64,000 nt of DNA from an uncultured candidatus Porisulfidus sp. (GTDB taxonomy: Bacteria > Pseudomonadota > Gammaproteobacteria > Poriferisulfidales > Poriferisulfidaceae). Position numbers and translations under genes: made by a program. Location: assembly GCA_965204575.1 (NCBI GenBank), contig OZ241993.1:704001-768000 (forward strand), given 5' to 3'. Within the stretch, counting starts at the first letter, position 1. Each line of letters starts with the position of its first letter. The notes under the pieces were generated by a model that had not been told where the DNA came from, made no database searches, and saw only the letters and a program-made list of their open reading frames with translations. Positions 7,586 to 11,914 of this stretch are shown here, in pieces.

Positions 7586-9367
7586 TCAGGGATTGATCCC
7601 GTCCACGTGCTGTTGCAGCCAGCATTCCAACGCTGCTGCATGCCATAGGAGGCTGCCGTCCAGCGCAGTTCGATAGCGCAGGGGATCCCGAAGCAGCCGG
7701 TCCAGATACTCTCCCCTGAACAGCCCACGATTCCGGCATTCGGGCAGATTCAAGGTTTCCCGCGCCCAGTCCAGGAAAGGCCCCTGCACGTACTTGAGGG
7801 CCGGAACCGGGAAATACCCTTTTGGCCGGTCGATCACCTCCGCCGGCAGCCGCGACCGGGCCAAGGCACGCAACGGGTACTTGCCGCCGTCGCGCAGCTT
7901 CAGTTCTGCCGGCATCCCGGCGACGCATTCCACCAATTGATGGTCGAGATACGGCACGCGCGCTTCAAGCCCCCACGCCATGGTCATGTTGTCGACCCGC
8001 TTGACCGGATCATCGGTGATCAGCATGGTCGCGTCCATGCGCAGCACGGCATTCAGGAATTCGACGTCCTCGCTGCATTCCAGCCGTTCGGCGAGCAATG
8101 CCCGGGTATGATCCTCGCCGACCCATTCCGGCACCAGCGCCTCACCGAACTCATCGTGGGTACGGTCAAGGTAATGGCGGCAGAAAGCATCCAGTCCGTC
8201 CGCCTGTTCCTCGTGCATTTTCGGGTACCAGGAATAGCCTGCGAACACTTCATCTGCGCCTTGCCCGCTCTGCACGACCGAGATGTCTGGCTTGACCTGT
8301 TCGGCCAGCAGGAAGAACGCCGCCGCGTCCTGCGCCACCATGGGTTCGCTCATGCAGCCGATGGCCTCGTCCAAGCGGCCCAGCAGTTGATCGTTGCGGA
8401 TGAAGTAACGGTGATGTTCGGTGGCATAGTGCCGGGCAACCGCATCCGAGTAGTCGAATTCATGCCCGGCTTCTCCGCCTGCGTCCTCGAAGCCGATGCT
8501 GTAAGTGCGGATGGGTGAGGAGCCATGCTCGGCCAGCAGGGCCACCAGCAGGCTGGAGTCCAGGCCGCCGGACAGAAGCACGCCGACCGGGATGTCGGAG
8601 ATCTCCACCCGCTTGCGCACGGCCTCCCGAAGTTCGACATGCACCTGCTCCACCCATTCCTCCGTGCTGCGAGCGGGATCCGGGTTGCGTGCATCCAGTT
8701 GCCAGTAACCCCTCTCTTTCATCGTGCCGTCCGCATCGACCATCAGGCAGTGGCCCGGCGCGAGCTTGCGGATGGAGCGCAGCAGGGTACGGGGTGCCGG
8801 GACGACCGCGTGCAGGCTCAGGTGATGGTGCAGGGCGACCTCGTCGAGCGCAAGATCGACGTCCCCGGTGGCAAGCAACGCCTGTACATTGGAGGCGAAG
8901 CGGAACACATCGGGGCTCTGGTGGTAATAAAGCGGCTTGATGCCCAGCCGGTCCCGGGCCAGGAACAGTTGCTCTGCATCCGGATCCCATAGGGCGAAGG
9001 CGAACATGCCGTGCAAGCGCCCGACGCAGTCTTCGCCCCACTCGGCGTAGGCTTTCAGAATGACCTCGCTGTCCCCCGTCGTCTGGAAACGGTGGCCGCG
9101 CTCTTTGAGCAGCGTTCGCAGTTGCGGGTAGTTGTAGATGCACCCGTTGAACACCAGGATTCGCCCGGAATCGGGATCCAGAAGCGGTTGATGCGCGCGG
9201 GGATTCAGGTCGATGACCGACAGGCGTCGGTGTCCCAGGGCGATCGGGCCCTGATGCCACTGGCCTTCGTGATCGGGTCCACGCCGGGCCAGGGGCCCAA
9301 GCATGCGGGTGATTCGGGCGGGGTCGGCCGGCCCTCTAAAATGCCTTTCTCCCGCAATTCCACACAC
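7586..9367 (-). CDS. AsnB-family glutamine amidotransferase, N-acetylglutaminylglutamine amidotransferase-like
   Basis: N-terminal (M)CGIAG Ntn nucleophile from GTG at 9367. Also RRGPD, GHRRLSVIDL, LLSGGLDSS, SGQGADEVFAGY and DDPVKRVDNMTMAWGLEARVP. Confidence 0.88.
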   Translation of the reverse strand: MCGIAGERHFRGPADPARITRMLGPLARRGPDHEGQWHQGPIALGHRRLSVIDLNPRAHQPLLDPDSGRILVFNGCIYNYPQLRTLLKERGHRFQTTGDSEVILKAYAEWGEDCVGRLHGMFAFALWDPDAEQLFLARDRLGIKPLYYHQSPDVFRFASNVQALLATGDVDLALDEVALHHHLSLHAVVPAPRTLLRSIRKLAPGHCLMVDADGTMKERGYWQLDARNPDPARSTEEWVEQVHVELREAVRKRVEISDIPVGVLLSGGLDSSLLVALLAEHGSSPIRTYSIGFEDAGGEAGHEFDYSDAVARHYATEHHRYFIRNDQLLGRLDEAIGCMSEPMVAQDAAAFFLLAEQVKPDISVVQSGQGADEVFAGYSWYPKMHEEQADGLDAFCRHYLDRTHDEFGEALVPEWVGEDHTRALLAERLECSEDVEFLNAVLRMDATMLITDDPVKRVDNMTMAWGLEARVPYLDHQLVECVAGMPAELKLRDGGKYPLRALARSRLPAEVIDRPKGYFPVPALKYVQGPFLDWARETLNLPECRNRGLFRGEYLDRLLRDPLRYRTALDGSLLWHAAALECWLQQHVDGINP

Positions 9368-9422
9368 AATACAAGTATAGTAAAGCCTTTTTCTGGAACT
9401 CTTTTTATATGAAGGCCGCCTG

Positions 9423-9690
9423 TAACGCAAGTTACTCTCCAGACCGTGTTGGGGGCGGCCAGATTGCAGTTTTATATTCGACCTGTTGATGCGGGTCCCG
9501 CCGAAGCTTCGCCCACTGGCCCTGATGGAATCTGCCGACCCGGTCCTCATTTCCAAAACGAGCTCGTAGCTCAAAGAGACTGCCAGGCTGACGGGTCGTC
9601 AGGTCTGGTCCTGCTTGCCATCACAATCGGGAATGCCTTGCGCAACCTGTTTCGTGCCACCTCCTCTGGTGAAGTCAGTGTCGGGAGCCG
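9423..9690 (-). ncRNA. Putative bridge/seek RNA locus of the IS1111-type element
   Basis: About 270-nt non-coding region 3' of the transposase. Contains segments matching the left junction (9548-9556 = 10851-10859), the right flank (9573-9578 = reverse complement of 9399-9404) and the element right end (9470-9477 = 9403-9410). Transcript boundaries unknown. Confidence 0.7.
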
Positions 9691-10719
9691 TCAGCCGCGC
9701 GGCGGACAGACGTAATCTTTCTGGTACTTGCGGCCATGGGCCAGCAAGGCCCAGGCGATTCTCGCCTGCCGGTTGGCGACTGCCACCGCGGCGACGTTGA
9801 ACGGCTTGTTCCGCTTGATCTTCTCGACCCACTCGGGCAGCTCCCGGCCGTTGGCCAGCAGTGACCGGGCGCCATGGATCAGCAGCGTGCGCAGGTAGCG
9901 GTCGCCCCGCTTGCTGATGCCGAGAATGCGGGTCTTCCCGCCAGTGCCGCTGTGGCGCGGCACCAGCCCCAGCCAGGCCGCGAACTCCCGAGCGTTGCGG
10001 AACGCCCGCGCGTCTCCCGCGGCGGCGACCAGGGCGGTCGCGGTCAGCAGGCCGATGCCCGGCACCTCCCGCAGTCGCCGGCAAGCCTCATGGCTTGTGC
10101 ACCATGCCTCCAGCTTCCGCTCGACCCGCGCAATCGCCTCGTCGTGCTCGTGGACGCGACGCCACTGCGCGGATAACTCTTCCCGACCCATCTCCGGGAC
10201 TCGCCCAGCCAGCCGGTCCAGCACGCCTTCGATCTCCCGGCTCAGCCCGGCCCGTCCTTGCGGCATCACCTCCCCGTATTCGCCCAGCAGGCCGCGCAGG
10301 CTATTGATCGTCGCCGTGCGGAACTTCACCTGCTGCTGCCGCAGGCGGTGCAGCCCCAGAATCATCTGCTGCTCCTCGTCCTTGATCGCCACCGACTTCG
10401 ACCGCGGATGCTGCACCGCCGTCCAGATCGCCCGCGCATCCTGCACGTCGCTCTTGTTGCCGGTGACGAACGCCCGCACCGACTGCGCCGGCAACACGGT
10501 CACCTCGTGTCCCATCTGCCGGAACCGGCGCGCCCACTCCTGCGAACCGCCGCAGGCTTCCAACCCGATCCGGCAGGGCGCCCGGTTGGCAAAGTGCTCG
10601 ACGAACTTCTGCCGCGACAGCTTCAGATCGACCAGTTCGCCGCCGGCCTCCACCCAGTGCAGTTGGAACACGTGCTTCGCGGTATCCACGCCGACCACCG
10701 GTTTATTGCTATACTCCAT
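9691..10719 (-). CDS. IS110-family transposase/recombinase
   Basis: VGVDTAK (D), GLEACG (E), KSDVQDA (DD), VPGIGLLTA and GLVPRHSGTGGK with the conserved Ser. GGAGGA ribosome-binding site upstream. Confidence 0.96.
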   Translation of the reverse strand: MEYSNKPVVGVDTAKHVFQLHWVEAGGELVDLKLSRQKFVEHFANRAPCRIGLEACGGSQEWARRFRQMGHEVTVLPAQSVRAFVTGNKSDVQDARAIWTAVQHPRSKSVAIKDEEQQMILGLHRLRQQQVKFRTATINSLRGLLGEYGEVMPQGRAGLSREIEGVLDRLAGRVPEMGREELSAQWRRVHEHDEAIARVERKLEAWCTSHEACRRLREVPGIGLLTATALVAAAGDARAFRNAREFAAWLGLVPRHSGTGGKTRILGISKRGDRYLRTLLIHGARSLLANGRELPEWVEKIKRNKPFNVAAVAVANRQARIAWALLAHGRKYQKDYVCPPRG

Positions 10720-10722
10720 CTC

Positions 10723-10804
10723 GAATCCTCCAGTCTGGCTCGTTGAAGTCGCCTATTGTCCACCTTTGGTACCCTAGATGCCGTCCGGACTCACTGGAGG
10801 ATTC
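10723..10804 (-). promoter_or_regulatory. 12-bp inverted repeat able to sequester the transposase Shine-Dalgarno sequence
   Basis: GAATCCTCCAGT (10723-10734) and ACTGGAGGATTC (10793-10804) are exact reverse complements; one arm contains the RBS. Confidence 0.65.
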
Positions 10805-10861
10805 ACCCTCTCCCAGTAATCCGGTCGCCAAGGCCAGGCGGCTTTCATACCATTTCCAATC

Positions 10862-11914
10862 ATGCCCGATTCGCTGCCGGATTTATCGCATGCCATCCGC
10901 CGGTGGGGCGGGGAACTGGGCTTTGACCAGGTGGGCATCACCGACCTGGATCTGGAAGAGCATGAGGTGCATTTGCTGAACTGGCTGGAACAGGGCCGGC
11001 ATGGCGAGATGGACTACATGCAGCGCCACGGAGTGCGCCGTTCGCGCCCCGGGGAGCTGGTGCCCGGAACGCAGCGGGTGATTTCGGTCCGGCTCAACTA
11101 CCTCCCGCACGGGTTTGATCGCGCCAAACAGGCACTGGCGGACCCCGCCTGCGGCTACGTATCCAGGTACGCTCTGGGCCGGGACTACCACAAGGTCCTG
11201 CGCGGCCGTCTGCGGAATCTGGTTCGACGAATCGAGGAAGCGGCCGGTTCCTTTGGCTACCGCGTGTTCACCGACAGTGCGCCGGTGCTTGAGAAGGCGC
11301 TGGCGGAGCGCGCCGGGCTGGGCTGGATCGGCAAGCACACCAACCTGCTGGCCAAGGATGCGGGATCCTGGTTCTTTCTGGGCGAGATCTACACGGACCT
11401 GCCGCTGACGCCCGACCCGCCGACCCGCGAAGAACATTGTGGGGATTGCCACGCCTGCATCGATGTCTGCCCGACCCAGGCGATCGTCGCGCCATACCAG
11501 TTGGACGCGCGCCGCTGCATCTCGTACTTGACGATTGAATTGAAAGGATCGATTCCCGTATCGCTGCGGCCATTGATCGGAAACCGGGTCTACGGCTGCG
11601 ACGATTGCCAGCTGGTCTGTCCGTGGAACCGTTACGCCCAACTGGCGGCCGTGGAAGATTTTCGGCCACGGGCCGTGCTGGAGGAATCGTCGCTGGTGGA
11701 AATGATGGCTTGGGAGGAAGAGGACTTCCTGCGTTACACCGAGGGTACGGCAATGCGCCGCATCGGCCACCTCCAGTGGCTGCGCAATGTCGCCGTGGCA
11801 CTGGGCAACGCCCCGCGAAACGAGACGGTTACCGCATCGTTGAAAGCTCGCTCCGGGCACCCCAGCCAACTGGTGCGCGAACACGTTTCATGGGCGCTGG
11901 AGCGCCACGCGTGA
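10862..11914 (+). CDS. queG: tRNA epoxyqueuosine(34) reductase
   Basis: SRYALGRDYH, DSAPVLEK, GSWFFLGE, and Fe-S motifs CGDCHACIDVCPT and GCDDCQLVCPWN. Confidence 0.96.
   Translation: MPDSLPDLSHAIRRWGGELGFDQVGITDLDLEEHEVHLLNWLEQGRHGEMDYMQRHGVRRSRPGELVPGTQRVISVRLNYLPHGFDRAKQALADPACGYVSRYALGRDYHKVLRGRLRNLVRRIEEAAGSFGYRVFTDSAPVLEKALAERAGLGWIGKHTNLLAKDAGSWFFLGEIYTDLPLTPDPPTREEHCGDCHACIDVCPTQAIVAPYQLDARRCISYLTIELKGSIPVSLRPLIGNRVYGCDDCQLVCPWNRYAQLAAVEDFRPRAVLEESSLVEMMAWEEEDFLRYTEGTAMRRIGHLQWLRNVAVALGNAPRNETVTASLKARSGHPSQLVREHVSWALERHA

Follow-up and report, generated by a model that had tools for sequence, protein, structure and literature searches.

Does an insertion sequence in the genome of an uncultured candidatus Porisulfidus sp. 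carry, within its own non-coding end, the RNA that selects its insertion sites? The element lies on contig OZ241993.1 within a stretch of 64,000 nucleotides, here called the window (G000:C1:704001-768000, within one 1.82-Mb contig), and an original prediction had proposed it as an IS1111 element whose guides can be read against its own insertion site. This proposal has been borne out by the analysis described here, with the element showing the characteristics of the IS1111 group, a guide-bearing loop enclosed by covarying stems, and covariation of guides and flanks in 44 guide pairs. Very probably, this is an intact and recently active IS1111-type element with a seekRNA (bridge-RNA-like) guide in its 3' non-coding end. 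The coordinates of its features are collected in Table 1.

Table 1. Features of the insertion sequence and its guide RNA region, in window coordinates.
Feature	Position	Strand	Basis
Insertion sequence with both AA cores	9404..10855	-	Two-copy comparison; empty sites
Left target flank TTGG (TTTGG in copy 2)	10856..10859	-	Flank comparison; the guide covers 6-7 nt before the element's ATG
Left AA core copy, crossover region; exact place within the A-run ambiguous	10854..10855	-	Both empty sites and family parse
Left subterminal inverted repeat ATGAAAGCCGCCTG	10835..10848	-	5 nt inside the left end
Transposase gene, 342 aa	9691..10719	-	Intact open reading frame in both copies
Conserved seekRNA/bridge-RNA-like region	9462..9650	-	47-sequence alignment A1, consensus fold, covariance model R1
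Basal stem closing the target loop (9585-9601 pairs with 9536-9547)	9536..9601	-	Helices 4 and 5
Right target guide GCAGTCTCTTT, 5' loop strand	9573..9583	-	Complementary to the top strand right of the crossover
Apical hairpin GAGCT-ACG-AGCTC of the target loop	9560..9572	-	Helix 6
Left target guide GTTTTGGAAATG (GTTTTGG-AA-ATG), 3' loop strand	9548..9559	-	Top-strand sense
CCATCA	9523..9528	-	Predicted pairing with invariant TGATGG 9618-9623 (helix 2)
Candidate left donor guide GAATATAAAACT	9468..9479	-	Holds ATATAAAA (9470-9477); unpaired in the consensus fold
Right subterminal inverted repeat CAGGCGGCCTTCAT	9409..9422	-	3 nt inside the right end
Right AA core copy (9404-9405) and right target flank AAGAG (9399-9403)	9399..9405	-	Flank comparison, empty sites

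The transposase passes the cut-offs of the Pfam families PF01548 (E 2.9e-12) and PF02371 (E 9.3e-23) and also matches the NCBIfam model NF033542, 'IS110 family RNA-guided transposase', with 318.5 bits against a cut-off of 140. All 49 homologs compared share its catalytic residues D12, E54, D91 and D94, and 47 of them retain the T259-G260 of its motif G251-L252-V253-P254-R-H-S-G258-T259-G260 (GLVPxxxG-TG). The IS1111 group has been described by a transposase of 330-350 aa, a GL-P----S(t)G motif and a longer non-coding region downstream of the gene (PMC11187229). The length and motif of the present transposase agree with this description, and the 3' non-coding end (9406-9690, 285 nt) is longer than the 5' one (10720-10853, 134 nt). 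The subterminal repeats, within the 7-17 bp range of the group, match at 13 of 14 positions when ATGAAAGCCGCCTG is compared with the reverse complement of CAGGCGGCCTTCAT, and beyond them lie short extensions (left, 5 nt; right, 3 nt) and the core. Judged by these sequence characters, the element is an IS1111-type member of the IS110 family encoding a DEDD/serine-type recombinase. The nearest transposases in public genomes are 56-63% identical, apart from that of one genome of the same genus, designated G007, at approximately 85% (291 of 342 residues). A search with phmmer against the IS621 structure 8wt6 gave E 2.4e-6 in the C-terminal domain only, and the solved IS621 and ISCro4 structures show a distant protein likeness in that domain overall (E about 1e-6 to 1e-7). 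In a plasmid collection, the best nucleotide match was 67-69% identical, with no named close relative.

A second copy of the element has been located at G000:C1:24145-25603, and window positions 9401-10859 are identical to it save for positions 10770 and 9403, leaving a single differing base (10770) among the 1450 inside the element. Because the copies differ at one element base and both open reading frames are intact, recent activity is indicated. On the transposase strand, the flanks of the window copy (copy 1) read ..GGGCATGA|TTGGAAATGGTATGAAAGCCGCCTG ... CAGGCGGCCTTCATATAAAAAG|AGTTCC, and those of copy 2 read ..CCAAGCGT|TTGGAAATGG ... CATATAAAGAG|CATGCG; the latter (..GCGT|TTGGAAATGG and CATATAAAGAG|CATG) resemble the former. 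In all five loci of same-genus relatives that were read, out of 11, the asnB-queG spacer, in which copy 1 resides, is free of the element, and the empty site has four T (..CCTTTTCC..ATG in L097 and L098). Removal of the element from the window leaves GGAACTCTTTTCCAATCATG, which on the transposase strand gives TTGG-AAAA-GAG as the empty site of copy 1. Copy 2 splits a gene of the AlbA_2 type, with the N-terminal frame ending in ..TTG GAA and the C-terminal frame beginning with GAG CAT, and three unbroken homologs are colinear and gapless across this point, reading ..KRLE+EHALED... Since both the frames and the three colinear homologs demand two A, the empty site of copy 2 must have been TTTGG-AA-GAGCAT. 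The target TTGGAAA(A)GAG put forward in the original prediction lies close to both of these sites.

A single parse accounts for the two sites, consisting of the left flank, an AA core, the element proper (ATGG...CATATA, 9406-10853), another AA core and the right flank, with an inserted length of 1450 bp relative to the empty site. An AT core, considered by analogy with a second element of this genome, and a right end of ..CATAT followed by three target A were both rejected, as each breaks the reading frame at copy 2 and conflicts with the empty site in the relatives. TTGG-A(n) stands at the left of both full copies and of a miniature derivative, and GAG at the right of both full copies. Insertion is thus orientation-specific and into a specific target, as seen in the two copies, the left side of the miniature and the copies of G007.

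Concerning the loci themselves, copy 1 lies 6 nt upstream of the queG start codon (ATG at 10862) and in the opposite orientation (window 10856-10864, 9350-9403). Within the short asnB-queG spacer it separates a GGAAC/GGGAG-like word from the ATG, and the translation signals of queG are probably disturbed. The gene split by copy 2 (L002 1036-1506 and 2957-4174) is of the AlbA_2 type, with a Schlafen-like DNA-binding domain, and is uninterrupted in three other genomes; its C-terminal part comprises two tandem winged-helix-like repeats.

The structure of the 3' non-coding end has been derived from comparison of relatives. Eighty loci (L009-L088) encoding transposases 56-63% identical to that of the window were collected; 56 distinct sequences gave a good alignment of their 3' non-coding regions, and 47 sequences of the conserved 3' part form the alignment (A1) on which a covariance model (R1) was built. 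The consensus fold contains 39 pairs, with 98.6% of cells paired and 15 pairs showing changes on both sides. None of 500 shuffles scored as high, and sliding the partners lowered the paired fraction to 32-43%. In the basal stem, double changes occur at 8 of 8 pairs of helix 4 and 1 of 4 pairs of helix 5 (9 of 12 together). In the apical hairpin (helix 6), 3 of 4 pairs are changed on both sides, in 9 and 16 sequences at two of the pairs, with 100% of cells paired. The two strands of the internal loop between these covarying stems, the arrangement known from seekRNAs, are the sole hypervariable parts of the RNA region and are unpaired in the consensus fold. A second covarying hairpin follows 3' of the target loop, and then the unpaired segment GAATATAAAACT. 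At the window region, R1 scores 128 bits.

Several of the short motifs of the original prediction fall within this loop, and all of them lie at the positions assigned to them on the minus strand. TTGGAAATG occurs at 9556-9548 and again at the left junction (10859-10851), CTCTTT (9578-9573) is the complement of AAAGAG (9404-9399), and the hairpin GAGCT-ACG-AGCTC occupies 9572-9560; outside the loop, ATATAAAA lies at 9477-9470 and 9410-9403 and CCAT at 9528-9525. The checks that had been suggested, a covariance model and a comparison of flanks, have yielded a covarying fold and a second copy with similar flanks. Two of the motifs required redefinition. The TTGG (TTTGG) portion of TTGGAAATG does represent the target, as proposed, while its AAATG consists of the family-constant AA core and the element's own ATG. 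CTCTTT is indeed complementary to the right flank, and constitutes the proximal part of a longer guide of 10-11 nt, as deduced from the right junctions of G007 described below.

The correspondence between guides and flanks was assessed in 67 loci with both ends and guides, representing 44 guide pairs (the 80 loci included 13 that were incomplete and 2 that were unparsed). The left guide, in top-strand sense, spans the left flank and the AA core and runs on over the element's first 3 nt; it is identical to the left junction over 9 nt in copy 1 and 10 nt in copy 2. The mean left match was 5.64 of 7 for cognate combinations (n=64) as compared to 3.22 for non-cognate ones (n=2752). By position, cognate identity was 0.88-1.00 from -1 to -6, with non-cognate values of 0.43-1.00 at the same positions, and fell to 0.57 at the seventh position and to background beyond it. 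The right guide, reverse-complemented, gave a mean best ungapped match to the junction of 0.71 in cognate combinations (n=65) against 0.49 in non-cognate ones (n=2665), and a match of at least 0.8 was reached by 29% of the former and 0.75% of the latter. The guides of the window element follow the same pattern. Its left guide matches 5/7 and 6/7 at its own two sites and at most 4/7 at 63 foreign junctions; its right guide matches 8/11 and 9/11 at its own sites and at most 7/11 at the same number of foreign ones. It is confirmed that the guide-flank matches lie far beyond chance. The two segments are directed against opposite target strands and overlap at AA, with the top-strand-complementary segment 5', which is also the order reported for IS1111 seekRNAs, where the segment complementary to the top strand precedes that complementary to the bottom strand (PMC11187229). 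Guides vary jointly with targets among the relatives, in the 44 guide pairs and in G007, a pattern of natural reprogramming.

The closest relative provides the most direct view of this joint variation. Among 15 same-genus genomes, only G007 matches the element at E <= 1e-50, with a full copy (86% nucleotide identity) and fragments at contig ends. Its right guide is ACAGTCTCTTT, and its seven right junctions, read after ..CATAT, are AAAGAGACTG (2), AAAGAGACT (2), AAAGAGTCTG (1), AAACTGACTT (1) and AAAAGTGACTT (1), the last two being weaker; five of the seven start with AAAGAG(A/T)CT, and AAAGAGACT is read in four of these five. The relative sits at ...AG-AA | AAAGAGACT(G), the full complement of the right guide, with exact matches of 10 nt. 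On the left, the guide of G007 reads GAGTTAG-AA-ATG and that of the window element GTTTTGG-AA-ATG, and four left flanks of G007 end in ATAG, GGAG, TTAG and TGAG, each followed by AA|ATGG. The A/G difference between the guides (TTAG as opposed to TTGG) is thus mirrored in the flanks, representing a one-base natural retargeting. A variant approximately 96% identical to the window element, found in sequencing run X4, carries two guide changes; on the right it is flanked by AAAAAGACTAG.. and AAAACTGACTGG.., in agreement with the distal GACT(G). In G007, six contigs (L104-L109) end within the element at its positions 1309-1316, a short way 3' of the target loop; the copies in that genome may differ in their guides, leaving the assembler unable to join them.

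Taking the known systems as a model, a sequence of events may be proposed. By analogy with ISEc11, ISKpn4, ISPa11 and IS621, the RNA would be co-transcribed with the transposase mRNA, and the transposase would bind it. The RNA would then pair with both strands of a target of the type TTGG-AA-(A)GAGACTG and with the joined ends of the circularised element, and recombination at the AA core would insert the element in one orientation. For the right guide GCAGTCTCTTT, the ideal top-strand target would be ..AA-GAGACTG, and the left guide would read TTTTGG.

Several results weigh against the presence of a functioning guide RNA. Single-sequence folds of the 3' end are no better than shuffles (z -0.40 and 0.00), as is likewise the case for the 5' end, and a search of Rfam with window 9000-11200 at E <= 1 returned no matching family. 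A scan of the linear element gave no promoter and no terminator, and of the six listed sequencing runs containing the sequence, none is on record as RNA. Copies of one element also vary by 1-2 nt in the distance from the right end to the segment that the guide matches, a variation not foreseen by a model of rigid pairing. The poor folds, together with the shortness of CTCTTT (6 nt) and CCAT (4 nt), are what would be expected if the matches were products of chance or of A-rich ends, with the 3' region serving another function such as mRNA stability or translational control of the transposase. Such an explanation is scarcely credible in light of the strong separation of cognate from non-cognate matches on both sides, the exact 10-nt matches in G007, the concerted differences of guide and flanks between the window element and G007, and the covariation of the stems beside the guides. 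With regard to the 5' end, an 11-bp stem hiding the ribosome-binding site of the transposase was considered and dropped, as it is not part of the minimum-energy fold.

The occupied targets raise a further difficulty for the guide-directed reading. Throughout the 1.8-Mb genome, 16 words of the form TTGG-A(2-4)-GAG on both strands are unoccupied, and the two copies in this genome occupy imperfect targets. When scored against the ideal target GTTTTGG-A(n)-GAGACTGC, copy 2 reaches 11/15, a level attained by 28 of 130,424 A-run sites. Copy 1 scores 7/15, with its matches clustered at the core; its left guide is matched at 4 flank bases and its right guide at 8 of 11. Taken together, the imperfect copies and the unoccupied sites imply that targeting is loose or transposition rare. 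They would also suit a resident relic that is now immobile, with the guide matches reflecting past insertions, and the small number of copies, just two full ones and a miniature of 185 bp, and the lack of a run recorded as RNA point the same way. This interpretation is improbable given a divergence of 1 in 1450 bases, two intact reading frames with complete catalytic residues, and the restriction of matches to G007 among the 15 same-genus genomes, which suggests a recent arrival. A recently active, guide-directed element is accordingly retained as the preferred reading.

On the donor side, ATATAAAA corresponds to the sense of the right end of the element plus the core. Four types of right end occur in the family, ATAT or ATAC followed by AA or AG, in all four combinations, and in 43 of 44 guide pairs the ATATAAAA segment has the base of the right end at both of the positions that vary (T/C and A/G), in keeping with the equivalence noted in the original prediction. 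The other donor match that it had suggested, between CCAT and the ATGG of the left end, found no support: CCAT belongs to a predicted stem, and nothing compensates for ATTGA and ATAGA, the variants of the left end seen in 5 guide pairs. Of the 6 pairs in helix 2 (CCATCA/TGATGG), 5 are constant, with one C-G double change and three cases of U-G at the remaining pair. CCATCA is probably structural in this model, rather than a donor guide. With respect to an IS621-type donor loop, the family presents a candidate left donor guide and no recognisable right one, as no column beside CCAT tracks the variable fifth base of the left end and none is convincing. In addition, a short seekRNA of 82 nt from ISEc11, described as carrying the target-recognition regions, sufficed for transposition of a mini-element (PMC11187229), and for this reason a donor-guide role of ATATAAAA may not be required. 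Both points count on the opposing side of the balance.

These same observations could be accommodated if the RNA provided target recognition only, the transposase recognised the ends through the subterminal repeats, and ATATAAAA resembled the right end for some other reason, such as an ancient partial copying of the end or binding by a protein. The absent right donor guide, the placement of CCATCA in predicted helix 2 with the uncompensated ATTGA and ATAGA, and the sufficiency of the ISEc11 RNA are all compatible with a target-only role. Such a role is nonetheless rather unlikely, as ATATAAAA tracks the right end at two independently varying positions and is unpaired in the consensus fold, the second element of this genome has its own matching ATATATG, and donor loops have been reported in the IS1111 elements inspected (PMC11208160).

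A guide acting on more than the empty target is in line with how both loop strands fit the integrated element. The ATG of the left guide is element sequence, the partner of the third A in the right guide's complement is the final base of the element and not the target G, and both guides reach 1-3 bases past the crossover. Given that they extend into the element, they fit the integrated junctions at least as well as the empty target. This fit would agree with a role of the RNA in excision as well as insertion, and a requirement for the seekRNA in excision has been reported (PMC11187229).

Were the ends joined in a circular form, TTGCGT and TAAAAT would stand 17 nt apart, as judged by eye (window 9425-9430, 9404-9407 and 10852-10853), and a TTGCAA-17-TA[A/G]AAT arrangement is conserved in the ends of relatives. 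A junction promoter has been described for these families (PMC11187229), and TTGCGT-17-TAAAAT is in line with it. The contigs of 4 runs held no empty site or end-to-end joint, and contigs cannot show rare forms; the sole joint listed in them is an internal skip of 491 nt in a single X4 contig (side 28).

The genome contains a second, different IS1111-type element in two copies with 7 mismatches, at about G000:C1 1241916-1243337 (L004) and 1813847-1815268 (L003), in both cases locus 758-2179. It shows the same three types of match with other sequences: its right guide TTGATAAA corresponds to the right junction TTTATCAA, its left guide CTCAGTGATG equals its own left junction, and ATATATG equals its right end. 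Scanning the genome with R1, which had not been trained on this second element, produced exactly 4 hits, falling in the two copies of the window element at 128 bits and in the two copies of the second element at 87 bits. All four lie inside elements, and the scan revealed no orphan copies of the guide RNA in the genome. The miniature derivative (185 bp; G000:C1:1097075-1097260; L007, about 1443-1628) is without transposase and guide region. Its left junction is TTGGAAATGG and its left end is 81% identical to that of the element, followed by an internal palindrome with an inverted loop and a degenerate right repeat, GGCGGCCTTTAT.

The target sites of the wider family (L009-L088) follow a pattern of their own. 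A Shine-Dalgarno-like word occurs at the left in 54 of 63 sites, and an ATG lies 4-19 nt to the right of ..CCAT in 59 of 63. The base following a guide-matched ..CAT is G in 41 of 42 words, of which the guide would specify G in just 10. Pfam families are present in 35 of 44 downstream open reading frames; the domain begins within the first 15 residues at profile positions 1-7 in 13 of these frames, and is clearly internal in L032. Judging from these flanks, most relatives lie between a Shine-Dalgarno-like motif and a genuine start codon, in the orientation of the gene. The window element and its G007 relative are without this preference. These observations may be combined into a single proposal, to which we assign an even chance: the clade is mostly guide-programmed for the gap between Shine-Dalgarno sequence and ATG in the orientation of the gene, with the outer ends of the guides fixed (GGAG- or GAGG-like on the left, CAT-complementary on the right) and the middle diversifying; the window lineage (TTGG/TTAG ... 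AAAGAGACTG) would be a natural escape from this habit, and one loop would read both integrated junctions. The last part, if true, would explain why the same RNA is needed for excision.

A similar habit has been described for another element. IS900, of the mycobacterial group IS900/IS901/IS902, belongs to the IS110 group proper, and reportedly (Doran, 1997; Bull, 2000) inserts between the ribosome-binding site and the start codon, which a literature search did not confirm. Most relatives of the window element resemble IS900 in this respect, unlike the window element and the G007 relative. The one related point in a text on the mycobacterial IS900 group is a host-expression-dependent hed ORF (PMC8141618). 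For IS1111-type elements, the literature searched contained no report of insertion between Shine-Dalgarno sequence and start codon.

The mechanism itself was published in 2024, and the finding is one that a specialist would expect rather than a surprise. Bridge RNAs have been predicted in 93.0% of IS1111s, within the right end, and their target and donor guides defined (PMC11208160). The locus offers a well-resolved natural example of the IS1111 type, with both empty sites, a relative in a sister genome and a second element of the same RNA family. The alignment and covariance model define the loop positions that are read: on the left some 6-7 nt, the core among them, and on the right some 9-10 nt, with shifts of 1-2 nt tolerated. 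This helps in the annotation of such elements and in the choice of new orthologs.

Comparison with characterised systems places the element within a known range of designs. ISPpu9 of Pseudomonas putida, with its RNA Ssr9, likewise belongs to the IS110 family and has a small RNA gene downstream of the transposase; it differs in targeting REP sequences and in having extra orphan RNA copies (PMC12288879), of which the covariance model finds none in this genome. The bridge RNA of IS621 shares with the window RNA a core common to target and donor and a second segment matching the donor (PMC11208160; PMC11208158), and the guide bases past the crossover resemble the 'handshake' bases of IS621 (PMC11208158). 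The window RNA departs from it in lying at the 3' rather than the 5' end and in the reversed order of target strands, and the element has long subterminal repeats, an AA core in place of CT and no recognisable right donor guide. The closest parallels are ISEc11, ISKpn4, ISPa11 and ISPst6 (PMC11187229). The window element differs from these in its TTGG-AA-GAGACTG-like target, and has in common with them the DEDD transposase, the subterminal repeats, the downstream non-coding region, the order of the guides and a natural redirection by replacement of guides, with conservation of the stems that hold them.

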